This document shows positions 7,785 through 20,432 of a stretch of 64,000 bases of DNA, in pieces (position 1 is the stretch's first letter; every line of letters begins with the position of its first letter). Source of the stretch: Promethearchaeota archaeon. Lineage in GTDB: Archaea > Asgardarchaeota > Lokiarchaeia > Sigyniarchaeales > SOKP01. The translations under genes were made by a program, and so were the position numbers. The notes beneath the pieces were generated by a model, which saw only the letters and a list, made by a program, of their open reading frames with translations, did not search any database and was not told the origin of the DNA. The stretch covers positions 1 through 64,000 of the forward strand of contig JBHLMQ010000001.1 of the NCBI GenBank assembly GCA_048938005.1, written 5' to 3'.

Positions 7785-9095
7785 TTAAATATCAAGACTT
7801 ATTTGTCCATATGTACCTCCTCCTCCAGGAGTATACTCAACCTTATCATTTCTAAGGGCTTTTATAATTAAAGCAATATTTTTATTAAAAAACTCAATTT
7901 TAGGAATAGGAGTATCAATTAGTATCTCAAATTCCTTTCCAAGTTCTTCAATTATTTTATTATAGTCATTTAGAACTGTCTTACTTGTTGTACTTTTGAT
8001 ACCTTTCACAGCTCGAATAATATCAATTAATGGTACAGCATTAATATATGGAGGTCTATGATCTGGATGTTTAGGTTCTTTGTATGTAGAAATTTTTTCA
8101 ATCCTTTCACTCACTCCCAATTTAACTTTAAAATTTTTATTTAAGTGCTCTCTACATGCCGGACAGTGTACTTTATTTTTAGAAACTTGTTCTAAATAAT
8201 CTAATCTTGAAGAAGTAGGGTCTATTGAGTAATATATAATAAAGTTATCAGTTATTGAATATTGATTAAAGATTTTACTTACTTGTTTTTTCACTTTCTT
8301 AAATAAGATCCTTCTCCTACATTTATTACAGAACATAACATAGTATTTTCCAAGTTTAGGATTTAATCCTACATTTAATATAATTTTTCGTCCATTTTTC
8401 TTTTGTATTGCTTGTAAGATCTCATTAAAAGAGGGATTATCAATATCAAATCTGTTAAATTCTCTGCCTAAGGAACGAGGATCCTGTGAGTGGGCATCAC
8501 TATTGCTTAGAAAAGTCACATCTTTCAAACACTCTAATCTATCTGCGAGATCAGTATTAGCAGAAAGTCCTAATTCAATGAAACAAATTTTCTTTGTTGC
8601 ATCAGCATAACATTCTTCAAGTGTTTTAAATTTGTTTTGTCGAAAAATTGCTTTAAAAGGTGTGAAGGCGTGAGCAGGACCAATCAAGGCACCCTCATCT
8701 GAGACAACTTCGGCCAATTCTGCTGGGGATAGATTAACCCTTGGCCGACCACCCCACTCATCCAAAATATTTTTTGAGTAAGGCTCTAATTTCATTTGAA
8801 TATTTCTTACCATATCGAAATCTTCGAAAAAGACGAGTTCATGCACACTCTCTTGATCTTCTATTTCAGTTTGAAGAATAAAATAAGTATCCTTATAACA
8901 ATAAGCGCCATCTTGATTTTTTTCTAAATTATTCTCCAAGTAATTCAGCCATGATGGTTGTAATACATCCCCCGTACCTAATATATTTAAACCTTTTTTT
9001 TTACAAGTATCGATCATCGTGTCAATATTTAGTGATTTCGACACTCCTATTGAATGTGGAGAATGTATATGTAAATCTGCGTTGTAAATATCCAT
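7785..9095 (-). CDS. PHP-domain / Zn-finger nuclease (EndoQ, TIGR00375-like)
   Basis: ADLHIHS, GPAHAFTP, SNSDAHS, LGKY..CxxC..CxxC, GVSERI and PGGGGTYG. Confidence 0.88.
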   Translation of the reverse strand: MDIYNADLHIHSPHSIGVSKSLNIDTMIDTCKKKGLNILGTGDVLQPSWLNYLENNLEKNQDGAYCYKDTYFILQTEIEDQESVHELVFFEDFDMVRNIQMKLEPYSKNILDEWGGRPRVNLSPAELAEVVSDEGALIGPAHAFTPFKAIFRQNKFKTLEECYADATKKICFIELGLSANTDLADRLECLKDVTFLSNSDAHSQDPRSLGREFNRFDIDNPSFNEILQAIQKKNGRKIILNVGLNPKLGKYYVMFCNKCRRRILFKKVKKQVSKIFNQYSITDNFIIYYSIDPTSSRLDYLEQVSKNKVHCPACREHLNKNFKVKLGVSERIEKISTYKEPKHPDHRPPYINAVPLIDIIRAVKGIKSTTSKTVLNDYNKIIEELGKEFEILIDTPIPKIEFFNKNIALIIKALRNDKVEYTPGGGGTYGQISLDI

Positions 9096-9162
9096 TTCTT
9101 TTAATAAAATTAATTCTATAAATATTTTAATTTAAAATGAAATAAGAGTCTTTTATTTAATA

Positions 9163-10209
9163 TTAAATAATGATCATTTTATCATGAATTGGATTACTTA
9201 ATAAAATCCTAAAGTATTCCTTTTCATTCTTGAAATTTACTTTTTCTAACTTTCCCTCAACGAATACAGTTTCTTTCTCTCTAGCATGTTCACAAAAACG
9301 GCCTCTGAATGAATTTATTTCATGTAATTCTTTTATATTGATAGAATTTGGAGTAATACTACTTTCGATAATTTTAAGAGGTTTTATTTTGTATGAACAA
9401 GGTGTAAAAATTGAATCTTTTGAATCAAGAATTACAGCTTTGAGTTTAATTCTCCCAATATTCTTGTATTGATAATCATAAAAATTCCCTTTCCAATCTT
9501 TTGAACTTTTAATATATCTAATAAAGAAATCATGATCCATAAATTTCCCTTGATGTTGCTTCCTTTTTTCACTTTTCATAAAGTCTTCAAATGAAATATT
9601 AGAACCACCAACTCTCCAATCATAATGAGTTCTATATTCATCCGTTGTATACTTCCTACAATCATCTGATTTTTTAAATATCTTTTTTAATATTTCTTGA
9701 AATTTTATACTTGTTTCTGTACCATATATTACTAGATCAGTATCAGAATCTTCAGTATTCAATCCGACCATAACTGATCCAGTAATTCCAATTGAATTCT
9801 CGGAAAGATGTCCTTCATTAATAAATAATTCACATAGGCTCTTAGAACGTTTTTCACTGTTGGATAAATAAGTTTTTTTTAATAAATCTTTAAAGAAGGT
9901 CCTAGGAGTATAAATTCTTTTAATTTCAGCTTTTTTAACTCCTTGAACTTCCAAATCCAGTTCTTCACAAAAGAAAAGGTGTTTAGGATATTTTTTTTTC
10001 AAAAGATCATATCGTTCGTTTAATTTGTAAATTTTTCTAAAACAAATTCCATTTTTTTTTCTTTCTCCATCTGGATGAGGAATAAATCGTAAAAAGGATA
10101 TGATATAATCATTTGGATGAAAAAGACCTTTTACATCAAAAAACAAATTATCATTTTTTGTTTCTATATAATCTCCTTCAATTGCATTTACAATCCTCAT
10201 AAATTTCAC
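9163..10209 (-). CDS. Archaeal nucleotidyltransferase-domain protein (COG1665-like)
   Basis: GITGS...DSDTDLVIYG Pol-beta NTase motif; C-terminal OB-like region. Confidence 0.8.
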   Translation of the reverse strand: MKFMRIVNAIEGDYIETKNDNLFFDVKGLFHPNDYIISFLRFIPHPDGERKKNGICFRKIYKLNERYDLLKKKYPKHLFFCEELDLEVQGVKKAEIKRIYTPRTFFKDLLKKTYLSNSEKRSKSLCELFINEGHLSENSIGITGSVMVGLNTEDSDTDLVIYGTETSIKFQEILKKIFKKSDDCRKYTTDEYRTHYDWRVGGSNISFEDFMKSEKRKQHQGKFMDHDFFIRYIKSSKDWKGNFYDYQYKNIGRIKLKAVILDSKDSIFTPCSYKIKPLKIIESSITPNSINIKELHEINSFRGRFCEHAREKETVFVEGKLEKVNFKNEKEYFRILLSNPIHDKMIII

Positions 10210-10220
10210 AAAATTTGTAA

Positions 10221-11378
10221 TTAATATTTTGAGGGCGTTTTTGATTTAATATGCGAAGGAGTTTTTGTTTTAATTGAGGGGGTTTTAGATTTAATTTTCC
10301 TTAGTTCTCTTTCAAATTCTCTTTTTTCATTTAAAAATCTTTGTCGATCCTTCTCTAGTTTTTCTCTTTCACGTTTAATAAGATTTTTTTCCCTTTCTAA
10401 ATTTGATTTTACTTTTTCTAATTGTCTATTTTCATCATTCAATTTTCTAAACCTTTCCTCTAAATTCGGAATCTTGCGATTTAAAGAGTAGAATTTATTC
10501 TCTGCTGCTGGAATTTTTCTTTCTAATTCTTTTAATCTTGCTTCTTGTTGATGCCTTTTTTTTTCCAAATTATTTACATCTCTTTCTGATTTATCTCTAT
10601 ATTTTTTCAAATCTAATCTTTTTTTATCAATTTCCCGAGTTTTAAGGTCTAAATCTTGTTTTTTATATCTGGTTTTTTCTCTTTCTTCCTTGAGTTTTTT
10701 CTTTTCATCAGATATTCGGTTTTTTTCATCAGTAATCTCCCTTCTCAAATTATTAACTTCTCTATTTAAGTTATCCCTTTCTCTAGTTAAATTTTTGATT
10801 TCATTTCTTAAATCCATTAATTTATTTTCTAAATCATTGGTTGTTCTCTCTAAAGCTTTTTCTCTCCTCTCCATCCCTGGAATTTTTGTTTTGATTTCTT
10901 TTATGCGCTTTTCTGTTCTTTCTTTTTCCCATTCTAAATTTTTCTTCTGATTTCGAATATCATCTCTCAATTCATCTAATTTATTTTGATATCTTTCTAA
11001 TTCAGCATTTTTTTGATCTAATTCTTCATTCTTACTTCTGATTTTTTCTCGAAATTGTCTGTTTTTAGTAGCTAAATCATTTTTTTGTTGTTCTATTTGG
11101 TTTTTCGTCGTTTCTAACTCATTCCGCAAGTTATTTCGTTGTTCAATAAGATTTTTAATTTTAAGTTCCTTTTCTTTTCTTTTTCTTTCTAAATCTTCTA
11201 TATTTTCTTCGTAATTTTCTATTTGATTAAGAACTTTTTCCCATTCGCTCTTTTCTTTATCCAGTTTAATTCTTTCTTTTTTTAATTTTTTAAGCAATTT
11301 TTTATCCGAAACTTGATCTAATTCTTCATCTGGCGTTTTTTCTCGAATTTGATATTTAGGAATAGGTTCGTCATTCAT
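10221..11378 (-). CDS. Long charged coiled-coil protein with C-terminal KTPS repeats
   Basis: About 340 aa of K/E/R/L heptads; tail IKSKTPS-IKTKTPS-HIKSKTPS-KY. Confidence 0.85.
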   Translation of the reverse strand: MNDEPIPKYQIREKTPDEELDQVSDKKLLKKLKKERIKLDKEKSEWEKVLNQIENYEENIEDLERKRKEKELKIKNLIEQRNNLRNELETTKNQIEQQKNDLATKNRQFREKIRSKNEELDQKNAELERYQNKLDELRDDIRNQKKNLEWEKERTEKRIKEIKTKIPGMERREKALERTTNDLENKLMDLRNEIKNLTRERDNLNREVNNLRREITDEKNRISDEKKKLKEEREKTRYKKQDLDLKTREIDKKRLDLKKYRDKSERDVNNLEKKRHQQEARLKELERKIPAAENKFYSLNRKIPNLEERFRKLNDENRQLEKVKSNLEREKNLIKREREKLEKDRQRFLNEKREFERELRKIKSKTPSIKTKTPSHIKSKTPSKY

Positions 11379-11587
11379 AATGTTTCAATTATTTATTATA
11401 TCTATTAATAAATTCATATTAATATTGACTCTAAAGTGTTTGCAAATCAAAACTCCAAATATTAAATTTTTGTATTTGTTGAATCTATTTATATAGCTTA
11501 GTTTCTATTATTTTCATATAATCTTAGCAAAAAAAAGATCAGAATTATATTTAAGATAAAAAGATATATTAGATTAGGTTTAATCTT

Positions 11588-12037
11588 ATGGGCTTTGATG
11601 ATGAATTTGATGAGGAATTTGATGAGGAATTTGATGAAGAATTTGATGAACAAGAATTTGATGAAGATTTAGAGGATTTAGAAGAAGAATTTGAGGAAGA
11701 AATAGAAGAACACGTCGAAGAACCTTTTGTAGAAATTGCTAAAGAGGAAGTTGATTCCAAAACACCTTCTACTAAGACTATTCAAAGAGGGAAAAAGATA
11801 TCAGTATATTTTATGTCTACTATCGGTCCAGGTGAGAAAAAGCAAAAATTAACTGTTAATGATGGAAACAGCGTTGGTGACATTAAAGAAACTGTAGCAA
11901 ATTTATTTGGTTTAGATCCTGCTGACTTTTACTTATCATGTGGTGGCGTAACAATGGATGAAACTAACTCTTTAAGCTTTTATAATGTTTCTGACGGAGA
12001 TGACATACTTTTAATTCCAGCTAGTATTGCTGGTTAA
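11588..12037 (+). CDS. Ubiquitin-like protein 1 (acidic N-terminal tail, C-terminus -SIAG)
   Basis: Beta-grasp pattern ISVYFMST...VGDIKETVANLFGL...GGVTMDETNSLSFYNVSDGDDILLIP; terminal Gly; lies next to E1/E2/JAMM. Confidence 0.88.
   Translation: MGFDDEFDEEFDEEFDEEFDEQEFDEDLEDLEEEFEEEIEEHVEEPFVEIAKEEVDSKTPSTKTIQRGKKISVYFMSTIGPGEKKQKLTVNDGNSVGDIKETVANLFGLDPADFYLSCGGVTMDETNSLSFYNVSDGDDILLIPASIAG
11594..11665 (+). repeat. Coding 12-bp tandem repeat (TTTGATGARGAA, FDEE)
   Basis: About six consecutive FDDE/FDEE-type units at the start of Ubl1. Confidence 0.85.
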
Positions 12038-12056
12038 TAAAATAAGAACCTTTTTT

Positions 12057-12845
12057 TTAATTTCTTTCTTTTCTTGAAGGGATTAGAGCAATTTCATCGT
12101 CATCATCAATATCATAATCTTTTATTATTGAGTTCTCTTGTAGTAATATCCCTCCGCTAGATAAGAGAAAATCTTCTAATTCATAATCAAATAATATTGC
12201 AATTTTTTCCTTAATTATTCTAATTACTTCAGTAGTATCAACAATTATTATTTTCGTTTTCTCGCCAGGTTCAACTAATGATCTTATATAAACTCGAATC
12301 TGACCTTCCATTTCGATTTGTCTTTTAGGTGGGGTATAAATTATAGCTCCATCAGTTTTATCCTTGGTGTTCAATATATTTTCGATTAAATCATTTCTCT
12401 CATTTGGATCGTAATATAGCATTTCTCTAATAAATAATATCTTATCCATTTTTGATAATCCTAGAAGGTTTATGTTATCTAATTCTTCCTTTCTAAAGAT
12501 TGAAAAAATAAATTTATCAACTATTGGCATATCCTTATAAGTCTCATCCGATTCAATATATTCTTCTATAGAAGGCATGACATCAATATAATCTTCAATA
12601 ATATCGCTAGTATCCTTTTGAATTAATTTTGGTTTTGTAAAGTATTTTTTTTCTTTTAATCTAATATCTTGACTACTTTTAGACTGTATAACGGTGTAAA
12701 TAGTACTTGTAGATAAAACTGCGACACTACTAATAGTTAGGACAAGAAATAAAGGAATATTTTCTACCTGAAATAGGAAAAAAAAGACATAGAATAGAAT
12801 ACAAAAAACGTAAATAACACTTAAAATTCTATAATTTTTTCTCAT
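12057..12845 (-). CDS. Membrane-anchored ubiquitin-like domain protein (2 TM + C-terminal Ubl, no terminal Gly)
   Basis: Two N-terminal hydrophobic helices; the C-terminal domain aligns with Ubl1/2 (PGEK, FLLSSGG, DYDIDDDDEIALIP) but ends SRKERN. Confidence 0.85.
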   Translation of the reverse strand: MRKNYRILSVIYVFCILFYVFFFLFQVENIPLFLVLTISSVAVLSTSTIYTVIQSKSSQDIRLKEKKYFTKPKLIQKDTSDIIEDYIDVMPSIEEYIESDETYKDMPIVDKFIFSIFRKEELDNINLLGLSKMDKILFIREMLYYDPNERNDLIENILNTKDKTDGAIIYTPPKRQIEMEGQIRVYIRSLVEPGEKTKIIIVDTTEVIRIIKEKIAILFDYELEDFLLSSGGILLQENSIIKDYDIDDDDEIALIPSRKERN

Positions 12846-12930
12846 GATTTTTTGATTAGATTATTTTCTGAATTTAAAATATTTAAATTATAATTTAAAT
12901 GGGATTGGAATAAAAATGGAGTTTTTCATT

Positions 12931-13602
12931 TTATATAGCTTTCATTGATTTTTTAGCTTTAGAATATTTCTCTAAATCTAGTTTGAAAACAATTCTATTT
13001 TTTTCTTTTTCAATCTTTATTAATTTCAGATCTATTAAAATATCTAAATATTTTTTAATAGTGCTGTGATTTTTTTTTAGACCAGTTGCTATTTCTGTAA
13101 TTTTAAATGCTTTATTTTCTTTTTTTATAAAATTAATTATTTTTTGAACGATTTCCTTTTTTAAATAATAGTATAGTGGGTCTAATTTTGGATTGGAATC
13201 AAATTTGAAGAAAATTTTGTGATTGTTGATTTGTTTTGATCTAATGAATTGGAATTTTTCTAAACATGATAAATGCCATAAAGCTTGATTACTACCAATA
13301 TTAAGAGCCCTCATTATTTCATTAATATTTGAGGGATTCTTTTTGATATAATTAAAGATTTCATTCCTTTTTGGATGTTCAATAATATTATTTTTCATTA
13401 ATCTGGTTCCAGGGATAATAATACGTCTTTTAATTAAATTCTTTAAGATTAACTCTATTCTATTCTCGTTTATATTAGGATTGTATCTTACCCTGTTGCT
13501 TATATATGAGATAATTTCTCTAATTGAGAAGAATGTTTTTTTTGTTAAATACTCTTCTACTAATTCAAGAACAACGGATTCTACATTATTCAGAGAACTC
13601 AT
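12931..13602 (-). CDS. Winged-helix transcriptional regulator (tandem ArsR-like wHTH)
   Basis: RNEIFNYIKKNP..INEIMRALNIG....WHLSCLE and ITEIATGLKKNHSTIKKYLDIL HTH patterns. Confidence 0.82.
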   Translation of the reverse strand: MSSLNNVESVVLELVEEYLTKKTFFSIREIISYISNRVRYNPNINENRIELILKNLIKRRIIIPGTRLMKNNIIEHPKRNEIFNYIKKNPSNINEIMRALNIGSNQALWHLSCLEKFQFIRSKQINNHKIFFKFDSNPKLDPLYYYLKKEIVQKIINFIKKENKAFKITEIATGLKKNHSTIKKYLDILIDLKLIKIEKEKNRIVFKLDLEKYSKAKKSMKAI

Positions 13603-13880
13603 GAGCCCATATTTATATTACGTAGAAATTTTTTGTTTTTATAATTACGTATTCTCTCTAAAACAATATTTTATGTCTTATATATATTGATAAACATTCA
13701 TATAATTTATAATATAATTTCTTTAGAATCCTAATTTTCTCGTTTTTAATTTTGATAAGAATTTAAAAAACTTCAAAATCATTCCAAAGGGTTTTATAAT
13801 ACATTTTTAACGCCATTTTATTAAGTTTAACAAAATTGAAAATTAAATTATAAAATAAAAAAAAATTGGATGTGATGTGA

Positions 13881-14216
13881 ATGGGTTTTGATAATGAATT
13901 TGATGAAGATTTAGGTGGAGAAGAACCGTTAAAATCTAAAACTCCTGCAACTAAAACTCCTTCAGCAGGAAAGAAATTAACTTTATATTTTATGTCAACA
14001 ATTGGTCCTGGTGAAAAGAAGGAAAAATTAACTGTGAATGACAGTAATCGCGTAAGAGATATTAAACAAACATTAGGAAATTTATATGGCCTTGATCCTA
14101 ATGACTTTCACTTATCTTCTGGCGGAGTTACAATGGATGAAGATAGTGCATTAAGAGACTATGATGTAAACGATGGTGACGATATTCTATTAATCCCTGC
14201 TAGTACAGCTGGGTAG
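13881..14216 (+). CDS. Ubiquitin-like protein 2 (C-terminus -STAG)
   Basis: Close paralog of Ubl1 (YFMSTIGPGEKK, GGVTMDE, DGDDILLIPAS.AG); immediately upstream of E1. Confidence 0.9.
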   Translation: MGFDNEFDEDLGGEEPLKSKTPATKTPSAGKKLTLYFMSTIGPGEKKEKLTVNDSNRVRDIKQTLGNLYGLDPNDFHLSSGGVTMDEDSALRDYDVNDGDDILLIPASTAG

Positions 14217-14248
14217 ACTTATAAAATTTTCTTCATAAATTATAACAT

Positions 14249-14286
14249 AAGGGCTTTAAGCCCTTCAATTTTTTTTATTTTTTTTT
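14249..14286 (+). terminator. Hairpin plus T-tract between Ubl2 and E1
   Basis: AAGGGCT-TTA-AGCCCTT perfect 7-bp stem at 14249-14265, followed by long T runs. Confidence 0.6.
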
Positions 14287-14308
14287 ATAAATATTAATGG
14301 TGATATGA

Positions 14309-15556
14309 TTGAATAAGGATTCAGATTTTTTTGCTAAAGAATTATCAGCGGATGAGAGAGACCTGTATGACCGTCAATTTCGTCTAGAAGGTTGGTCTCA
14401 GAAATTAGTAAAGAACTCAAGAGTGCTGATAGTCGGTGTTGGAGGCTTGGGTTGTGAAATTGCTAAAAATCTAGCCATGCTTGGTGTGGGTCATTTAGAT
14501 CTTATTGATTTAGATATCATTGAACATTCTAATTTGAACCGTCAAGTTCTATTTGCAGGAGCAAAGATAGGAGAGTCAAAAGCAGTTGTTGCTGCTAGAA
14601 AATTAAAAGAAATTAATCCTAATGTTATTGTTAAGGGATACCACACCTCCTTAGAACGTTTAAATCCGGCACTATATCAAGCTGCTGATGTTGTAATTGG
14701 AGGACTTGATTCGATGAATGCACGTCTAAATTTAAATGCACAATGTATAAGATTTAAAAAGCCACTAGTAGATGGAGGAGTATCTGGTTATTATGGTCAT
14801 GTATACACAATATTTCCTTACAAAAATGCTTGTTATGAATGTAATCCATTACCGGTAGGAGAGAGTGATGAGATGGCTGCTTGTACTGTTGTTGGAGTCC
14901 CCCGAAAAAGGATTCACTGCGTTTTTAAAGGAGATATGGCATTCAGAGAAAAATTTGATAGAGATCCGAATCCAAAAGACGTAAATGATATTAAATTCAT
15001 TCAAAAGACTGCAAATGAATTAGTAAATAAACACAATTTCTTACCTGAATATACGGAGGATGATATTGTGAAAATCATTGATAGGCACGATCCTGGTATA
15101 ATAACTATAAATGCCGTCATTTCTGCCCTACAATCACATGAAACAACCAAAATCCTTCATTGGAAAAAAAGTCATAAAGGATTAGGTGAACCTATTAGAA
15201 GTTATGTGATCTTTAATGCAATTACAATGAAATTTTATCATATTGAAAAACAGAGAAACCCAGAATGTTCTCAATGTGGTAAAAAAGTACGACGAGTATC
15301 CATAAAATTGAAAGCTCAATCACCTTGTATAAATATAATTAAAATATTAAAGAAGAATGGATTTAAATTAGATCCAAATTCCGAGCCAATTCTAACTTTA
15401 CTGGATTTTAATGATATTATGATTGTTGATTTAGAGAAGAATCCAATTGAAAATGGGTTAAGAAATTACGAGCTTATGACAGCTGCTGGGTTTAAAGGTG
15501 GAGAAATTTTTGTAACCTTAAAAATAAAACAAGATTTAAATCAAAAAAGTTTTTAA
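14309..15556 (+). CDS. E1 ubiquitin-like activating enzyme (ThiF/UBA family with catalytic Cys domain)
   Basis: YDRQ, GVGGLGCE, SNLNRQ; Zn pairs CYEC and CSQC; UBA3-like AACTVVGVPRKRIHC segment. Confidence 0.93.
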   Translation: MNKDSDFFAKELSADERDLYDRQFRLEGWSQKLVKNSRVLIVGVGGLGCEIAKNLAMLGVGHLDLIDLDIIEHSNLNRQVLFAGAKIGESKAVVAARKLKEINPNVIVKGYHTSLERLNPALYQAADVVIGGLDSMNARLNLNAQCIRFKKPLVDGGVSGYYGHVYTIFPYKNACYECNPLPVGESDEMAACTVVGVPRKRIHCVFKGDMAFREKFDRDPNPKDVNDIKFIQKTANELVNKHNFLPEYTEDDIVKIIDRHDPGIITINAVISALQSHETTKILHWKKSHKGLGEPIRSYVIFNAITMKFYHIEKQRNPECSQCGKKVRRVSIKLKAQSPCINIIKILKKNGFKLDPNSEPILTLLDFNDIMIVDLEKNPIENGLRNYELMTAAGFKGGEIFVTLKIKQDLNQKSF

Positions 15557-15637
15557 ATTAAAAGTTTAAGGAAAAAAACAATTATTTAAAGAAAGATTTT
15601 TACTATAAAATTAAGGATAATAAAAAGGGTTGAGAGT

Positions 15638-16165
15638 ATGAGTATAAGAAGTGGTCGAGTATCCCGAGATTTTGCGGGATTAAAAAAAATGCTTAAAGAA
15701 GGTAGTATCATTCAATTAAAACCATTTAGTCCGAAAAGGAAGAGTATTGATCACTTAGCAATCTTATTTAAAGGACCTAAAGGTACCGCTTATGCAGGTG
15801 GTCTTTTTAGATTAGAAATGAGATTTCCTGCTCAATATCCTAAACAACCTCCTTTTGTAAGAATGCATACTCCAATTTGGCATCCAAATTTTTGGCCAAA
15901 ACCCTCTGAATATAAAGGACAAAGAAATATTTGTCTAGCATTAGTAGATCCCTCATTAATAGGTAAAAAAGGTGGATGGAGTCCTTCAAAAACTGCTGTT
16001 ACAGTAGTTCAAGCGATAATTGCTATGTTAAACACGCGTGGTAAATATGTAAATCCTACAGATGTATTTAATAAAAAAGCAGCAATAGAAATGATAAAGA
16101 ATCAAAAGTTTTTTGAGAAAAAAGTAAAAAATCTTGTTAAGAAGTATGCAAATAAAAAATGGTGA
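15638..16165 (+). CDS. E2 ubiquitin-conjugating enzyme
   Basis: GPKGTAYAGGLF, FPAQYPKQPP, WHPN, catalytic NICL and WSPS. Confidence 0.95.
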   Translation: MSIRSGRVSRDFAGLKKMLKEGSIIQLKPFSPKRKSIDHLAILFKGPKGTAYAGGLFRLEMRFPAQYPKQPPFVRMHTPIWHPNFWPKPSEYKGQRNICLALVDPSLIGKKGGWSPSKTAVTVVQAIIAMLNTRGKYVNPTDVFNKKAAIEMIKNQKFFEKKVKNLVKKYANKKW

Positions 16166-16986
16166 TTTTTTTAATGGATAATGATGACCTGGCCAATAAC
16201 TCGATAAAAGATGTAATTAAGAGGAAGATAAAGGAAAAAATAAAACAAGAACTATTAGATGAAATCTGTGAAGAACTTAAATTAGAAGAAGATGAATTAA
16301 CTGAAGAAATTTCTTCAATGCTTACAAGAAAACCATCTGAAAAACCAATTATAAAACTTACTAAGATTCCTACAGCTAGAATTGTAGAAAATAAAAAAGT
16401 TGAAACTGAAAAAGAAGAGGAAATCCAAAAAGAGATTTATATTTCAGTAAAAGCTATACTTAAAATAGCGACTCATGCGCTTAAATACGCGAATTCTAAG
16501 ATTCCTAAAGAAAAATGGGTGGAAGTGATAGGGCTTCTAGCAGGAAAGATAGATAATAATCATGTAATCCATATAGAAGATTCTTATCCAATGGGACATG
16601 GTACAGCAGTTTATGCAGAAATTAAAGATTATAAAAATTACGTTAGAGCTTTTAAAGATATTAAAAGGCAGAAGTATTTTATATGTGGATGGTATCATTC
16701 ACATCCATCTTATGGATGTTTCATGTCGAATGAAGACATGGGGACTCAAGCGAGATACCAAAAATTATGGGATAAAGCTGTTGCTCTTGTCATCGATCCC
16801 TATCAAATTAATGGTAAATCTGCGGGATTTGAAATATATAAAGCTGATATTAAATCTAACACATGGTATCCCCTTATATATGGAATTAAAGGATCATTAG
16901 ATGTAAAAATGTTACCAGAAGTATTAAAATTTATAAATCCCATAACTGAGGGAAAAGCAGTATATCTCGAATATGACGAGGATTAA
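16159..16986 (+). CDS. JAB1/MPN (JAMM) metalloisopeptidase, Rpn11/CSN5-like (true start may be the ATG at 16174)
   Basis: EVIGLL...GWYHSHPSYGCFMSNEDMGTQARYQ...ALVIDP; charged N-terminal extension. Confidence 0.93.
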   Translation: MVIFLMDNDDLANNSIKDVIKRKIKEKIKQELLDEICEELKLEEDELTEEISSMLTRKPSEKPIIKLTKIPTARIVENKKVETEKEEEIQKEIYISVKAILKIATHALKYANSKIPKEKWVEVIGLLAGKIDNNHVIHIEDSYPMGHGTAVYAEIKDYKNYVRAFKDIKRQKYFICGWYHSHPSYGCFMSNEDMGTQARYQKLWDKAVALVIDPYQINGKSAGFEIYKADIKSNTWYPLIYGIKGSLDVKMLPEVLKFINPITEGKAVYLEYDED

Positions 16987-17011
16987 AAGAGAGTGTGGTG
17001 ATTAATAGACT

Positions 17012-18184
17012 GTGACCAAATATAAATCTATTGTAATTGTATTAGCGATATTTTCGCTTATAGGAATAGTGCACGGTGCGATCTTAATCTCTTTTAATAT
17101 ATTTGTGAGTTGGTTATTGATTGGAATTTGGTTAATATTTTCGTTTAAAGTATTAAAAAATATTAAGCAACATCGAGAATATCGAAGTCCTCACAATACT
17201 GCATTCTTTACTATTGGCCCCGTCTTTATTGGAATATTTTATTCAATTTGGGGAAATTTTACAGCCTTATTAGGAGAAAATCTTATTGTAGATTCAAATT
17301 TATATTTAAGTCTATGGAGTATTCTATTTGGATTACCTTATGTAATTTACGGCTCATTTTCCTTATATCGATGTTTTAAGAAATATAATGTAATTTATTT
17401 TGGTACAAAATCAGTAAATGCACGTAAATTTGCCTATTTCTTAGGTTTTTCAATTCTATTTTTTATAATTTTCTATTGGATAAGTTTTTATTCATTTGCA
17501 GAATTTTATGGATTTCTGCTAATAATTGATCTTAATCTTTTGATATTACTTATTGGAACTATTATAATATTGATTATTCCAGGATTATTAGGATCTCGTT
17601 CGCAATTACCGCAATTGACTAGAGATTATATAGCAAGACGTACAAGTAGATTAAACAGTTTAGTTTCACCAAACACCCATAGAGAAAGCATTCATACTAC
17701 AGCAAGATCATCTCCAACACCTTCTACAAGATTTGTTACTCATACTTCGAGATCTGTTTCCCATTCTTCAAGATCAACGCCGACAGGACATATACAATCT
17801 AGAACTTCTAGAGTTAAAACCACTACTCGTTCTAGAAGCACAAGTAAAAAAGGAAAGCCAATAAGAAGAAGTAATACTACTGTAAAACATGCGAATTACA
17901 AACATTATAGACCAAAAGCCGCAAACTTGTCAATAGAAGATTTTAAATGTATTTTTTGTTTTAAATTACCAGAATTTCCTAAAGATAATGGTAGAGGAAT
18001 AATTTTATGTCCAAATTGTAGGTACCCTGCTCATGCTGATGAATTTAAAGATTGGCTTAGAACTTCTGGTCTTTGTTCTAGATGTAATGCCCCTATTCCG
18101 TTAAGTTATAGGAGAAATCCTAAAATCATTAGTGTAAAAAGCTATTCAATAATTTATAAAGATTTTCTAAGGAAAAAACAGTAG
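17012..18184 (+). CDS. Multi-pass membrane protein with C-terminal RING-like zinc finger (putative E3 ligase)
   Basis: About six hydrophobic helices, an S/T/R-rich linker, then CIFC...CPNCRYPAHADE..W....CSRC; last gene of the E1-E2-JAMM run. Confidence 0.8.
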   Translation: MTKYKSIVIVLAIFSLIGIVHGAILISFNIFVSWLLIGIWLIFSFKVLKNIKQHREYRSPHNTAFFTIGPVFIGIFYSIWGNFTALLGENLIVDSNLYLSLWSILFGLPYVIYGSFSLYRCFKKYNVIYFGTKSVNARKFAYFLGFSILFFIIFYWISFYSFAEFYGFLLIIDLNLLILLIGTIIILIIPGLLGSRSQLPQLTRDYIARRTSRLNSLVSPNTHRESIHTTARSSPTPSTRFVTHTSRSVSHSSRSTPTGHIQSRTSRVKTTTRSRSTSKKGKPIRRSNTTVKHANYKHYRPKAANLSIEDFKCIFCFKLPEFPKDNGRGIILCPNCRYPAHADEFKDWLRTSGLCSRCNAPIPLSYRRNPKIISVKSYSIIYKDFLRKKQ

Positions 18185-18195
18185 TTCTTTAAAAA

Positions 18196-19155
18196 TTAAT
18201 TTCGAAATTTTAACTTTTTTTTTAATTCGCCGAGTGTTGTTTTCAATTCAGCGTATACATTGAAGACATGTATGCTTTCTAAAGATTCAACCTTAAATCT
18301 AACCTTAAAATCATCTTCAAGATTTGGAAAATCTCTTAAAATGAAATTTTTTGCCATCTCTCGAATAACATCTTCGGAAAAGAGAGGTTTTAAATGTGCA
18401 CTTCTAACCAATTCTGCTTCTTCTGGTCTTTTTAAAACTGATTGAATCTTGCCACTCATAGATTCTTCTATTATATCTATAATATCTAAAACGTCTACTT
18501 TATGATTAGTTAAATCCTTAATTTGGACTATAATAGTACCTATGGATCTTTGATTATGTGATGAAAATGGAAGTATATTTAATAATTTCTTGAGGTCTTC
18601 TTCTGAAACATCAATATCTTGTCTAGATTTAACAACTTCCTCTGCATACTCCAAAGATAGTTCTTTAGCACAAGGACAAACTGTCATACCAACTGCACTC
18701 GCACCAATAAAATAATTATAATCAATATTACCTAAATTATCTCGAATGGCTTTTACAAATGAACTAATATCATATGATTTTTGAATAATTCTTTCATCAT
18801 TTTCTCTGACTTGGACAATTATTTTACCTTCTAATTTAACTTCAGCTTTTGAAGTATAGGGATGGCGTTCTAATAATTTTTTGACAATTCTATCTCCAAC
18901 AAGTTCAATAGTCGGAGTAGGTTTGAAAATTACCTCATTAATGACTTCTTCTATAGTCTCAGAAGTCCGAGACATATGTATTCCACGCTGTTCAGCAGGA
19001 AGATTGATTAATGCTGAAATTTTTGGGTAAAAAGAATACCTTTTATTCTCTTGAATTATCTCAACTTTTTTTTCCAGTTCTACAATACCCACCTTATCTA
19101 TTGGAATATCTATTCTTGAACTTGAATTTTGTAAATCTATTTTAAATTTGGTAAT
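18196..19155 (-). CDS. mptA: GTP cyclohydrolase IV / FolE2 family
   Basis: RGIHMSR, MTVCPC, SHNQR, ESIH; frame extended to ATT at 19155 to include the conserved DLQ..IPIDKVGI. Confidence 0.9.
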   Translation of the reverse strand: MTKFKIDLQNSSSRIDIPIDKVGIVELEKKVEIIQENKRYSFYPKISALINLPAEQRGIHMSRTSETIEEVINEVIFKPTPTIELVGDRIVKKLLERHPYTSKAEVKLEGKIIVQVRENDERIIQKSYDISSFVKAIRDNLGNIDYNYFIGASAVGMTVCPCAKELSLEYAEEVVKSRQDIDVSEEDLKKLLNILPFSSHNQRSIGTIIVQIKDLTNHKVDVLDIIDIIEESMSGKIQSVLKRPEEAELVRSAHLKPLFSEDVIREMAKNFILRDFPNLEDDFKVRFKVESLESIHVFNVYAELKTTLGELKKKLKFRN

Positions 19156-19262
19156 TCTGAGTCACCAATATTAAAAATTAATTTTTTTATGATCTATTCT
19201 TTAAAAGGATTGGAATAATATAAAATATTAATTTCAATTATATTTGGATTGTCTAAGAATTA

Positions 19263-20432
19263 ATGGTAAATAAATCTTTATTTTGTAGGTATGCTTTACT
19301 CGGAGAGGATTTAGAATTAAAACAAAATACAAATTTAGAAATTGATGATAGTGGGAAAATCTTAAATCTCTCTTATGATGAAGTAGAAGAGAACTTAAAT
19401 ATTTTACCAGATGGTCATTCCTCCTTATTGATTCCAGGATTTATAAACTCTCACGTTCATATAGGAGATAGTTTTGCTAAAGAATTAGGTTATAATAGAG
19501 AGTTAGAGGAAGTCGTCGCCCCGCCATTTGGTTTTAAACATAAATTATTAAGGCAAACACCAGAAAGCGTCAAGATCAAAGGAATTCAAAATGCTGTTTT
19601 AGAAATGCTTTCAAATGGTATTACTTTTTTCGTTGATTTTAGAGAGGGGGGAGCAGAAGGTGTAAATCTTCTAAAAAGAGCACTTAGTAAAGTTTCAATT
19701 AATTATTTAATCCTAGGGCGATTTATGGATGAGAGCGAAATAGATTCTATTTTTGGTTTAGCTGATGGTGTTGGATTATCTAGTTATAAAGAAATTACTA
19801 AGACAAATAAAATATATGTCTCATCTGCAAAAAAGAAGTTTAAAAAAATCCTAGCATGTCATTGTGCTGAAAAGACTCGGGATAGTAATCTAATAAATGA
19901 AATATTTAATGATAATCTTGTTGATATATTTATTCATGGAACAAAATTTGTCAAAAGAGATTTGGAAAACATAATTGAAAATAATAAATCTCTTGTTTTA
20001 TGTCCTCGTTGTAATGGATATTTTGGAGTTGGATTTCCGCCAATTAACGAAATTTTAAGACTGAAAATTCCAATATCTCTAGGAACGGATAATTTAATGG
20101 TAAATAATACAGATTTATTTGAAGAGATGCGATATTTTTATCGAATTTCAAGAGTTTTATGTAGTTACAATAAAAAACTTCAACTAACCTCTAAAGATTT
20201 ATTGAAAATGGTAACATACAATGCAGCAAAAAATTATAATCTGGAAAAAAAGTTTGGTTCAATATCAAAAGGAAAATTTGCTGATCTTTTTTTAATTGAT
20301 CTTAGCAGTCCAAATATGTTTTCTTCTAAATTAAATTCGAATAATATATATGATTTAATTACTCAAAGGACAAAATCAGATAATATTAAAAAAACTTATA
20401 TCAAGGGAGAGTTAGTTTTTGAAAGAATTTGA
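19263..20432 (+). CDS. Amidohydrolase-superfamily deaminase (candidate flavin-pathway pyrimidine deaminase)
   Basis: PGFINSHVHIGD, HCAE, LGTDN and GKFAD; overlaps the RibD-C reductase gene. Confidence 0.8.
   Translation: MVNKSLFCRYALLGEDLELKQNTNLEIDDSGKILNLSYDEVEENLNILPDGHSSLLIPGFINSHVHIGDSFAKELGYNRELEEVVAPPFGFKHKLLRQTPESVKIKGIQNAVLEMLSNGITFFVDFREGGAEGVNLLKRALSKVSINYLILGRFMDESEIDSIFGLADGVGLSSYKEITKTNKIYVSSAKKKFKKILACHCAEKTRDSNLINEIFNDNLVDIFIHGTKFVKRDLENIIENNKSLVLCPRCNGYFGVGFPPINEILRLKIPISLGTDNLMVNNTDLFEEMRYFYRISRVLCSYNKKLQLTSKDLLKMVTYNAAKNYNLEKKFGSISKGKFADLFLIDLSSPNMFSSKLNSNNIYDLITQRTKSDNIKKTYIKGELVFERI

Follow-up and report, generated by a model that had tools for sequence, protein, structure and literature searches.

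A predicted membrane-tethered ubiquitin-like conjugation operon with an Ala-Gly-ending modifier in a Lokiarchaeial genome

Gene content of the cluster

Ubiquitin operons with a modifier, an E1, an E2, a RING protein and a JAMM protease are known from archaea, and the question raised by the present locus was whether it encodes one of these systems or a separate pathway. The window, i.e., the whole analyzed stretch of 64,000 nt from a Lokiarchaeial (Promethearchaeia) genome, contains a cluster of nine open reading frames at 10221-18184. A sequence-only reading had proposed a self-contained, membrane-associated ubiquitin-like conjugation system, and the presence of the nine ORFs, with their positions and strands, was confirmed. 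Taken together, the results described below indicate that the cluster encodes a probably functional conjugation system, which looks like a widespread but undescribed cousin of the known archaeal ubiquitin operons.

The analysis with Pfam did not yield uniform results for the three ORFs with ubiquitin-like (Ubl) domains. The cut-off of the ubiquitin family PF00240 is 25.4 bits, and it was exceeded by Ubl2 (13881..14216, plus strand, 111 aa, 28.3 bits) and by the membrane Ubl (12057..12845, minus strand, 262 aa, 26.0 bits), whereas Ubl1 (11588..12037, plus strand, 149 aa) remained below it with 21.4 bits. However, Ubl1 is 70% identical to Ubl2 over 97 residues. Ubl1 consists of a long acidic N-terminal tail with one S-K-T-P motif and a beta-grasp domain ending in ...PASIAG, while Ubl2, the core modifier, has an acidic stretch, two K-T-P motifs and a ubiquitin-type beta-grasp ending in ...LIPASTAG. 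A profile search with the Ubl matched ubiquitin, the Caldiarchaeum Ubl and ISG15.

The E1 (14309..15556, plus strand, 415 aa) contains a ThiF adenylation domain (202 bits), a catalytic-Cys loop, two CxxC pairs and about 80 unassigned C-terminal residues that may be a UFD. The best solved relatives are SAE2/UBA2 (4.6e-40), UBA1 and UBA3, and the Cys loop aligns with that of UBA2. The segment M-A-A-C-T-V-V-G-x-P-R-K-R-I-H-C and both CxxC pairs are conserved in at least 97% of 74 sequences. The E2 (15638..16165, plus strand, 175 aa) has a UBC fold (UQ_con, 86 bits) and matches eukaryotic E2s at up to 5e-15. H82, P83 and N84 of the H-P-N motif and the catalytic Cys99 are invariant in 35 sequences; the 33 orthologues are 70-95% identical and a paralogue (C76) 38%. 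The E2 gene overlaps by 7 nt with the gene for the JAMM/MPN+ metalloprotease (16159..16986, plus strand, 275 aa), which has an N-terminal extension of about 90 aa. It yielded a JAB hit of 65 bits, its best solved relatives are Rpn11 (5.5e-18), CSN5 and AMSH, and the E...H-S-H-P...S-x-E-D motif is conserved in 84 sequences.

Two rival readings can be addressed with these data. First, Ubl and E1 might serve sulfur transfer of the MoaD/ThiS-MoeB/ThiF type instead of protein tagging. The E1 also matches the ThiF/MoeB NCBIfam models with 122-148 bits, albeit always below their cut-offs, and the modifier ends in a single Gly-containing dipeptide. However, a UBC E2 with its catalytic Cys, a JAMM and a RING-like protein are co-conserved with the E1, the E1 has the eukaryote-type catalytic-Cys loop, no rhodanese domain was found by Pfam, and the Ubl profile matches ubiquitin proper, and thus, this possibility is very unlikely. 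Second, the cluster might be an anti-virus defence system of the bacterial Bil or CBASS Cap2/Cap3 kind, which conjugates a Ubl to invader proteins. The E1 gave 33 PADLOC hits to CBASS "E1-E2" models, with a best score of 65 bits, and the JAMM gave a weak JAB hit of 18 bits. These hits cover only the generic adenylation fold; ThiF scores 202 bits and SAE2 141 bits. The E2, the Ubls and the membrane protein have no PADLOC hit. In addition, the locus sits between the same housekeeping genes, a FolE2-type GTP cyclohydrolase and an amidohydrolase, across the related loci, and it is present in 50 of 53 genomes of the genus, which is unlike a variable defence island. A role in defence is therefore also regarded as very improbable.

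Conserved core and lineage-specific insert

Next, the conservation of the gene order was analyzed. Of 80 related loci, 65 hold all five core genes and 49 hold the full set, showing that the gene order is not chance. Many of the incomplete maps lie on short records, although the loci were not individually checked for truncation. The conserved core consists of a divergently placed coiled-coil gene followed by Ubl-E1-E2-JAMM-membrane RING, and it recurs in other families of the order and in other classes of the phylum. The order from Ubl to the membrane RING gene was found in families designated f2, f3 and f4 as well as in f7, f16, f17 and f28, whereas in f13 the Ubl-E1 pair is detached by about 1.6 kb. 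The membrane-RING gene matches 34 of 41 relatives' genomes, and its profile hits 206 of 400 genomes of the phylum. In three closed or large assemblies the locus is split into two places, and thus, strict co-location of the coiled-coil/insert half and the enzyme half is not required.

In contrast, Ubl1, the membrane Ubl and the winged-helix gene turned out to be a lineage-specific insert and not part of the conserved core. They occur in 4 of 13 genera of one family (f1). The N-terminal part of the membrane Ubl matches in 5 of the 13 genera, in 4 of them over its full length, and the protein is missing from the conserved core in the other families and classes mapped. It comprises two N-terminal hydrophobic helices, with hydropathy peaks at residues 7-23 and 30-46, a middle domain and a C-terminal Ubl domain. 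The double winged-helix protein (12931..13602, minus strand, 223 aa), a candidate local regulator, yielded an ArsR-type HTH_5 hit of 33.1 bits and has a second wHTH at residues 148-205. It always lies beside the membrane Ubl.

The Ala-Gly end of the modifiers

The C-termini of the Ubls were compared to reveal whether the Ala-Gly end is conserved. All 138 small Ubl ORFs carry P-x-S-x-A-G. Of these, 99 stop there and 39 carry tails, 38 of them of 1-7 residues and one of 82. This is the pattern of a modifier precursor, and it supports the view that Ala-Gly is the conserved mature end. The membrane Ubl ends in ...PSRKERN, and none of 62 orthologues has A-G in its last 12 residues, in agreement with the sequence-only reading that it lacks a conjugatable end.

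The membrane protein and its zinc domain

The last gene of the cluster (17012..18184, plus strand) encodes a polytopic membrane protein of 390 aa, the putative E3, with six hydrophobic segments, a Ser/Thr/Arg-rich linker and a C-terminal RING-like zinc domain (residues 310-360; 17939..18091, plus strand). The loop charges follow a positive-inside pattern that fits N-in/C-in, and thus, the zinc domain is predicted to be cytoplasmic. The protein has no Pfam hit; all named entries among the best 120 of 369 homologues are "hypothetical protein", and none has a precomputed Pfam domain. No sequence or Atlas lead links the membrane domain to any named family.

The zinc domain has the ligand pattern C-x2-C ... 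C-x2-C-x4-H-x2-E ... C-x2-C, and C313, C316, C333, C336, H341, E344, C355 and C358 are invariant in 53 sequences. The assignment as RING rests on transitive homology and not on a direct Pfam hit. The domain does not reach any Pfam RING cut-off; the best scores were 18.0 bits for zf-RING_2 and 17.9 bits for Prok-RING_1, both in an orthologue, and Prok-RING_1 did not hit the domain in the genome scan. The domain profile found 120 cluster representatives among 1.84 billion, and 10 distant ones were scanned. Five of them passed the zf-RING_2 cut-off of 27.3 bits on the matched stretch, i.e., P0255 (44.9), P0258 (31.3), P0260 (30.3), P0267 (28.4) and P0273 (31.0). Of nine fetched sequences, six have H or C at the position of Glu344, and P0255 has Glu there.

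These results leave room for the possibility that the cascade is real but that the membrane protein is not a ligase. RING-like domains can be purely structural, one of the eight canonical ligands is Glu, and the best solved hit of the single sequence is the C-terminal zinc domain of IFT144 (E 1.1e-4, which falls to 0.023 with the profile). In this case, the zinc domain would be a structural or docking module, the protein would be a receptor, substrate or anchor, and conjugation would be driven by the E2 alone, which would read the K-T-P consensus directly, much as the SUMO E2 appears to read its own. The much higher conservation of the E2 across the order (70-95% identity) than of the membrane protein (28-35%) would be in line with this view. 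However, half of the scanned distant relatives pass zf-RING_2, the gene always occupies the position directly after E1-E2-JAMM, and in the Caldiarchaeum operon the srfp RING protein was shown to act as the E3 (PMC5654768). The alternative is thus considered unlikely.

A shared K-T-P motif

The coiled-coil protein (10221..11378, minus strand, 385 aa) gave only coiled-coil-type Pfam and NCBIfam hits. It was found next to the operon in seven mapped cases. It shares a K-T-P motif with the N-terminal tails of the Ubls. One copy is near its N-terminus and three are in its C-terminal tail (10230..10292, minus strand), while the tail of Ubl2 contains S-K-T-P-x-x-K-T-P (13935..13961, plus strand). Of 60 coiled-coil orthologues, 59 have at least one K-[TV]-P in the first 45 residues and 56 in the last 45. 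K20, P22 and the I-P-x-S-x-A-G end of the Ubl are invariant in 28 sequences from several classes. Only 3 of 7763 ORFs in the genome have two K-T-P within 20 residues, namely the coiled-coil protein, Ubl2 and a third Ubl-fusion on contig C60, whereas 20 shuffles gave a mean of 0.25 and a maximum of 1. A frame-blind DNA pattern scan of five other genomes was noisy, with 29 hits compared to 21 for the reversed-pattern control, and some in-frame hits lay in an unrelated, conserved protein.

We read the motif as the site that the machinery recognises. Most likely its invariant lysine is the acceptor, which would make the coiled-coil protein a main substrate and would allow the modifiers to form chains, but this is inference only. 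Alternatively, the repeats might be docking or phosphorylation motifs (Thr-Pro sites) that regulate or localise the modifiers and the coiled-coil protein. The motif contains Thr-Pro, it sits in predicted flexible tails, and it is conserved as K-x-P with Thr variable to Val in some sequences. However, Lys and Pro are the invariant positions, while Thr is not, and no kinase or phosphatase gene turned up in the gene maps, which were annotated only against the system's own proteins. We regard this second reading of the motif as the less likely one, but it remains possible.

Proposed mechanism

Based on these results, we propose that Ubl2, and in this lineage also Ubl1, is adenylated and thioesterified at its Ala-Gly end by a homodimeric, eukaryote-like E1 and passed to the dedicated UBC-type E2. 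Discharge onto lysines would be aided by the six-segment membrane protein, whose cytoplasmic RING-type zinc domain would recruit the E2, and therefore, conjugation would happen at the cytoplasmic face of the membrane. The Rpn11-like JAMM would trim the short C-terminal tails found on some orthologues and reverse conjugation, and the coiled-coil protein would belong to the system. Ubl1, the non-conjugatable membrane Ubl and the wHTH protein would be later additions in part of one family. All biochemical steps, the topology, the E3 role and the role of the motif are inferred, and the probability of this explanation is estimated to be about 0.7. The modification of membrane-proximal substrates, as suggested by the sequence-only reading, likewise remains an inference.

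Comparison with known systems

The sequence-only reading had pointed to a parallel with the eukaryotic membrane RING ligases of the ERAD/Dsc type, i.e., Hrd1 with Usa1/HERP and Tul1 with Dsc3. Shared features are a polytopic protein with a cytoplasmic RING-type domain and, in this lineage only, a membrane-anchored non-conjugatable Ubl protein encoded nearby. The parallel is weakened because it leans on the membrane Ubl, which is a late, lineage-restricted addition, and because the membrane domain has no detectable sequence or Atlas similarity to any named family. The resemblance is architectural only.

With the prokaryotic RING fingers (Prok-RING_1/2) and RING-H2 (zf-RING_2), the zinc domain shares a Cys/His spacing that is compatible with a cross-brace. 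Its profile reaches proteins that pass zf-RING_2 and one that passes Prok-RING_1, and ESM Atlas leads, which are leads only, point to Prok-RING clusters at a score of 0.81. A C4HC3 arrangement in prokaryotic RINGs has been described (PMC11354881). In contrast, the domain is not detected directly by either model, its sixth ligand position is Glu, and the domain family is narrow.

The SUMO pathway is a functional analogy only. SAE2/UBA2 is the top solved relative of the E1, but UBA1 and UBA3 are nearly as close. The presence of a short lysine-containing motif in candidate substrates as well as in the flexible N-terminal tail of the modifier might recall the SUMO consensus site and SUMO2/3 chain formation. 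However, the modifier is ubiquitin-like rather than SUMO-like by profile, the motif is K-T-P rather than the SUMO consensus, and there is no evidence that the E2 reads it.

The eukaryotic UFM1 system, and the Asgard Ufm1 homologues reported in 2026 (PMC12962969), would seem to share a single terminal Gly preceded by a small hydrophobic residue, the proposed removal of short C-terminal tails and a membrane-linked action. However, the Pfam Ufm1 model does not hit the Ubls of the window, no UFM1 chain is among the best 60 solved matches of the Ubl profile, the E1 scores 63 bits against UBA5 but 141 against SAE2, the E2 has H-P-N, and the protease is a JAMM and not a Cys protease.

The closest known systems are the ubiquitin operon of Caldiarchaeum subterraneum (Ub, E1-like, E2-like, srfp RING E3, Rpn11/JAMM) and the Asgard GG-ubiquitin/ESCRT-linked cascades. 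The biochemical function of the Caldiarchaeum and Helarchaeial cascades has been published (PMC5654768; 10.1101/2023.07.25.550441). The present cluster has the same five functional classes, i.e., a ubiquitin-type beta-grasp, an E1 with a catalytic-Cys loop, a UBC E2, a RING-type zinc protein and an Rpn11-like JAMM. The same genome also holds a GG-ubiquitin operon on contig C9, from which the cluster is distinct. The enzymes are distant paralogues, with 29% identity for the E1s and 36% for the JAMMs, and the two E2s give no BLASTP match at E < 0.01. The sequence-only reading had contrasted the membrane protein with the small soluble RING typical of known operons, but this contrast fails inside this genome, because the GG-type operon is also flanked by a 350-aa protein with multiple hydrophobic segments and a C4HC3 zinc finger. 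No ESCRT gene lies in the locus. The modifier ends in Ala-Gly instead of Gly-Gly and carries an acidic K-T-P N-terminal tail, the zinc domain is the C-terminus of a six-segment membrane protein with conserved cytoplasmic loops, and a K-T-P-tipped coiled-coil protein is co-conserved.

Gene content of the cluster and further ubiquitin-related genes of the genome

Nine ORFs were found in window 10221-18184, in agreement with the coordinates of the sequence-only reading, and their translations were compared with Pfam. The coiled-coil protein (10221-11378, minus strand) gave coiled-coil-type hits only. The ubiquitin family model was matched by Ubl2 (13881-14216) with 28.3 bits and by the membrane Ubl (12057-12845, minus strand) with 26.0 bits, whereas Ubl1 (11588-12037) remained with 21.4 bits below the cut-off of 25.4, but Ubl1 is 70% identical to Ubl2. 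The wHTH protein (12931-13602, minus strand) yielded HTH_5 with 33 bits, plus a second winged helix. The E1 (14309-15556) matched ThiF with 202 bits, the E2 (15638-16165) UQ_con with 86 bits, and the JAMM (16159-16986) JAB with 65 bits. No hit was obtained for the membrane zinc-domain protein (17012-18184). It has six hydrophobic peaks, and, as far as can be judged from hydropathy and charge, its loop charges fit an N-in/C-in topology, which puts the C-terminal zinc domain in the cytoplasm. The membrane Ubl has two N-terminal hydrophobic helices. The E2 and JAMM genes overlap by 7 nt, and the other gaps in the plus-strand run are 25-92 nt. The region has 24-33% G+C, like the rest of the window. 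A search for operator-like repeats in the two divergent intergenic regions revealed only AT-rich low-complexity pairs. No RNA data set was listed for window 11400-18200, and the listed data comprised 20 DNA runs from sediment, mangrove and soil metagenomes in 8 studies.

The genome (G000) is 3.72 Mb in 101 contigs and 95% complete, and it holds more ubiquitin machinery. Contig C9 (63076-66713; locus L133:1077-4714) carries a Caldiarchaeum-type set, that is, a ubiquitin ending GGNL, an E2-like protein, a 294-aa E1 and a JAMM. This set is flanked by a 350-aa protein with multiple hydrophobic segments and a C4HC3 zinc finger, which gave sub-threshold C1/PHD/RING hits. Membrane zinc-finger partners are therefore not unique to the Ala-Gly system, and the contrast drawn in the sequence-only reading with operons that typically contain a small soluble RING does not hold in this genome. 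Contig C76 (6435-16482; locus L136) encodes a third E2 (173 aa) and an E1 of 527 aa with a large insert beside a 2125-aa repeat-rich helical protein, and a 557-aa protein with a weak UQ_con hit, possibly a UEV, lies at C76:46751-48424. Two more GG-ubiquitins are encoded on contig C70, and a ubiquitin-like frame ending AGGV on contig C56. A 274-aa protein with a C-terminal Ubl of the window's type, ending SSTAG, is encoded away from the operon on contig C60 (46849-47673, minus strand; locus L134:1850-2674). The enzymes of the window are distant paralogues of these proteins. The E1 is 29% identical to the C9 E1 and 49% identical to the C76 E1 over the first 150 residues, the E2 is 36% identical to the C76 E2, and the JAMM is 36% identical to the C9 JAMM. 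The cluster is therefore a separate system.

Conservation and extent of the conserved unit

Related loci came almost entirely from metagenome-assembled genomes titled Promethearchaeota or Promethearchaeia, that is, Lokiarchaeia. The membrane zinc-domain protein matched 34 of 41 relatives' genomes, namely 23 of 24 in the genus, and 7 of 11, 1 of 1 and 2 of 4 in three other families of the order. A profile of 53 sequences hit 206 of 400 genomes of the phylum. It should be noted that the genomes searched are a sample, that many of them are incomplete, and that kin are not independent, so that the counts describe distribution and are not statistics. Strong full-length hits occurred in family f1 (117 of 134; the families are numbered f1, f2 and so on) and in f2, f4, f5, f7, f28 and f29. 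Weaker partial hits were found in f13 (29 of 31), f15 (8 of 12), f16 (19 of 22), f17 (2 of 2) and f18 (7 of 12). Several other families have none or nearly none, including three pooled families at 0 of 89.

Next, gene maps were generated by BLASTP of all ORFs against the proteins of the window. They showed that the conserved unit consists of the divergent coiled-coil gene and the run Ubl-E1-E2-JAMM-membrane zinc-domain protein. This unit appears in families f2, f3, f4, f7 and f28. In f16 and f17 the five-gene run is present, but no coiled-coil gene was detected, and in f13 the Ubl-E1 pair is detached by about 1.6 kb. Of the best 80 loci from the scan of public genomes, 65 hold all five core genes and 49 hold the full set, and many of the incomplete maps lie on short records. 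The flanking genes (window 7785-10209 and 18196-20432) are housekeeping genes, i.e., a PHP-domain protein, a nucleotidyltransferase-like protein, a FolE2-type GTP cyclohydrolase (178.7 bits) and an amidohydrolase (143.2 bits). The same flanks recur in most of the 80 related loci, but they are conserved only within the close relatives.

Ubl1, the membrane Ubl and the wHTH gene sit between the coiled-coil gene and Ubl2 only in part of family f1. The N-terminal 165 residues of the membrane Ubl matched in 99 of 135 family genomes, in 5 of 13 genera, and full-length matches occurred in four genera (g1 49 of 53, g22 36 of 42, g21 and g15). Outside the genus, the full protein query found only Ubl domains. 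The middle part of the membrane Ubl (residues ~70-165; window 12351-12635, minus strand) recurs at 25-38% identity inside frames of roughly 170 to 1500 aa in other genomes of family f1, which suggests an unnamed mobile domain. In three genomes (G006, loci L042/L043; G022, loci L044/L045; and G023, loci L050/L051) the locus is split into a coiled-coil/Ubl1/membrane-Ubl/wHTH half and an enzyme half with Ubl2, E1, E2, JAMM and the membrane zinc-domain protein, and the halves lie 40 kb to 1.3 Mb apart. G006 keeps a second Ubl2 copy and a 136-aa E1 fragment at the break, and in G022 the E1 ORF next to E2 is shortened to 266 aa.

The enzymes and the modifier

The best solved relatives of the E1 are SAE2/UBA2 (4.6e-40), UBA1 and UBA3, while MoeB and ThiF come lower. 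The alignment to UBA2 runs through the catalytic-Cys loop, and this loop and two CxxC pairs are conserved in at least 97% of 74 orthologues. The last ~80 residues are unassigned and might represent a ubiquitin-fold domain. The E2 has a canonical UBC fold, in which H82, P83, N84 of the H-P-N motif and Cys99 are invariant. It is strikingly conserved, with 70-95% identity across the order and 55-59% in other classes. For the JAMM, Rpn11 (5.5e-18), CSN5 and AMSH are the nearest solved proteins, and the Glu and the H-x-H...S-x-x-D motif are intact in 84 sequences.

The profile of 28 Ubls matched ubiquitin, the Caldiarchaeum Ubl, ISG15 and ubiquilin-type domains. All 138 small Ubl ORFs in the fetched loci carry P-x-S-x-A-G, and none has Gly-Gly at that place. 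Of these, 99 stop exactly there and 39 go on, 38 of them for 1-7 residues and one for 82. A conserved end followed by variable short tails is what a processed modifier precursor looks like, and Ala-Gly is therefore the mature end. In contrast, none of the 62 membrane Ubls has A-G in its last 12 residues.

The C-terminal zinc domain of the membrane protein

Direct comparison of the zinc domain with RING family models did not yield a hit above a curated cut-off. The best RING-family hit of the window's domain was zf-RING_16 with 12.3 bits. The orthologue at locus L037 gave 18.0 bits for zf-RING_2 (cut-off 27.3) and 17.9 bits for Prok-RING_1 (cut-off 29.1), and a scan of the genome with Prok-RING_1 (PF14446) did not list the gene. 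In a search of solved structures, the single sequence (window 17909-18181) had its best hit in the C-terminal zinc domain of intraflagellar transport protein IFT144 at E 1.1e-4, with a shared C-P-x-C-[RK]-[FY]-P-A signature. However, with the family profile the hit dropped to E 0.023, and it was regarded as a curiosity rather than a finding. Atlas searches pointed to Prok-RING and RING clusters, at lead-level scores only.

The useful result came from an exhaustive profile search, which found 120 cluster representatives among 1.84 billion. Nearly all of them are ~370-450-aa proteins with the domain at the C-terminus. Ten of the most distant hits were scanned, and five of them (P0255, P0258, P0260, P0267 and P0273, found at E from 1.3e-8 to 9.3e-4 for the whole library) passed zf-RING_2 on exactly the matched stretch with 28.4-44.9 bits. 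One also passed Prok-RING_1. The sequences share the C-P-x-C-x-x-x-[AG]-H signature. In the window protein, seven Cys/His are invariant, and the sixth ligand position is occupied by an invariant Glu344. Six of the nine fetched sequences have H or C at this position, three residues after the His, and P0255 has Glu there. The domain is therefore called RING-type by transitive homology, with an unusual Glu at the sixth ligand position. Its E3 activity is inferred from that homology and from its fixed place after E1-E2-JAMM.

A K-T-P motif shared by the modifiers and the coiled-coil protein

The N-terminal tails of the Ubls consist of an acidic stretch followed by one or two K-T-P motifs, and the coiled-coil protein carries the same motif at both ends. 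In this genome, only 3 of 7763 ORFs of at least 50 aa have two K-T-P within 20 residues, namely the coiled-coil protein, Ubl2 and the C60 Ubl fusion, whereas twenty residue shuffles gave a mean of 0.25 and a maximum of 1. The Lys and Pro are invariant in 28 Ubls, including those from other classes. Of 60 coiled-coil orthologues, 59 have the motif in the first 45 residues and 56 in the last 45. A frame-blind DNA pattern scan in five other genomes was too noisy to add much, with 29 hits against 21 for the control. In G006, 5 of 6 hits lie in system genes. In-frame hits elsewhere include a pair in an unrelated, conserved ~400-aa protein of two genomes and one 618-aa membrane protein of genome G168 (locus L158:851-2707), which carries two K-T-P motifs 8 residues apart and C-terminal CxxC pairs. 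Our preferred reading is that the lysine of the motif is the acceptor site, but this is inference only, and the motif might instead be a docking or Thr-Pro phosphorylation motif.

Larger proteins can also end in this Ubl. Proteins of about 580 aa that end in a Ubl of this family (...STAG or ...SRAG, some with short tails) are encoded next to the coiled-coil gene in families f4 and f28 (L037:9691-11448, minus strand; L036:2213-3964; L137:14072-15814, minus strand). The one that was scanned (L037) also has a VWA domain at 25.5 bits. The C60 fusion is a conjugatable Ubl with a large N-terminal domain, an acidic stretch and two K-T-P motifs. Its N-terminal domain looks like a zinc ribbon, judged from a C-x-x-C in the sequence, but Pfam found no such domain. 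One could speculate that Asgard archaea carry an ancient second ubiquitin-like pathway that works by consensus-site tagging at the membrane. The invariant lysine of K-T-P would be the acceptor, and the modifiers would form chains because they carry that site in their own N-terminal tails. As some modifiers are the C-termini of larger proteins, such as the VWA-Ubl and the zinc-ribbon-Ubl of C60, the pathway would covalently assemble whole proteins onto a K-T-P-tipped coiled-coil scaffold beneath the membrane, under the control of a polytopic RING ligase and a JAMM. Such a scaffold-building use of a Ubl, which has no described counterpart in the literature examined, is not excluded by the results, but it is regarded as unlikely.

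Comparison with known systems

A recent study reported Asgard Ufm1 homologues (PMC12962969), and it was therefore tested whether the Ubls belong to that family. The Pfam Ufm1 model (PF03671) gave no hit on the window, and no UFM1 chain was among the best 60 of 385 solved matches of the Ubl profile. In addition, the E1 scored 63 bits against UBA5 but 141 bits against SAE2, and the E2 has the canonical H-P-N. A UFM1 system was thus rejected on sequence grounds, although an overlap of the published sequence set with this family cannot be excluded. The bacterial defence Ubl systems (CBASS Cap2/Cap3, Bil) were also rejected, because only the generic adenylation part of the E1 (up to 65 bits) and a weak JAB hit (18 bits) matched PADLOC models, while the E2, the Ubls and the membrane protein had none. 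For the membrane domain, with ERAD-type membrane RING ligases (Hrd1, Tul1) in mind, no Pfam hit was obtained for residues 1-213, and an Atlas search of this domain alone gave no usable lead.

In public records the E2 is named 'ubiquitin-conjugating enzyme E2' and the E1 'ThiF family adenylyltransferase', but the modifier's own cluster carries no name. Every named record among the best 120 homologues of the membrane protein is 'hypothetical protein', and none has a Pfam domain. In the literature searched, supplements excluded, no description of an Ala-Gly modifier, a K-T-P motif or a polytopic RING in an Asgard operon was found. However, the papers do list a dozen E2-related Asgard orthologous groups, so the enzymes are surely counted somewhere.

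Work on the origin of the eukaryotic ubiquitin network has centred on the GG-ubiquitin/ESCRT-linked operons of Aigarchaeota and Asgard archaea, at least in the papers examined. The locus shows a second, separately conserved cascade, inferred from sequence, in the same genomes, with its own E1, E2, protease, modifier family and membrane-embedded RING-type protein. If it works as proposed, diversification into parallel Ubl pathways and the placement of a RING ligase in the membrane predate eukaryotes. It would also offer a small, soluble-enzyme set (Ubl, E1, E2, JAMM, zinc domain) amenable to reconstitution in vitro, and testable candidates for a substrate consensus, the K-T-P motif, and for a dedicated substrate, the coiled-coil protein.

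Taken together, the proposed system would work like the Caldiarchaeum and Helarchaeial cascades, which have been reconstituted (PMC5654768; 10.1101/2023.07.25.550441). In common with the archaeal eukaryote-like ubiquitylation operons of the Caldiarchaeum/Asgard type, the cluster encodes a ubiquitin-type beta-grasp modifier, an E1 with an adenylation domain and a catalytic Cys, a UBC-fold E2 with H-P-N and an active-site Cys, and a JAMM/MPN+ protease with an intact metal site. It differs from them in two descriptive features. The modifier ends in Ala-Gly instead of Gly-Gly, and in place of a small soluble RING finger protein (srfp), the zinc domain is the C-terminus of a 390-aa protein with six hydrophobic segments.
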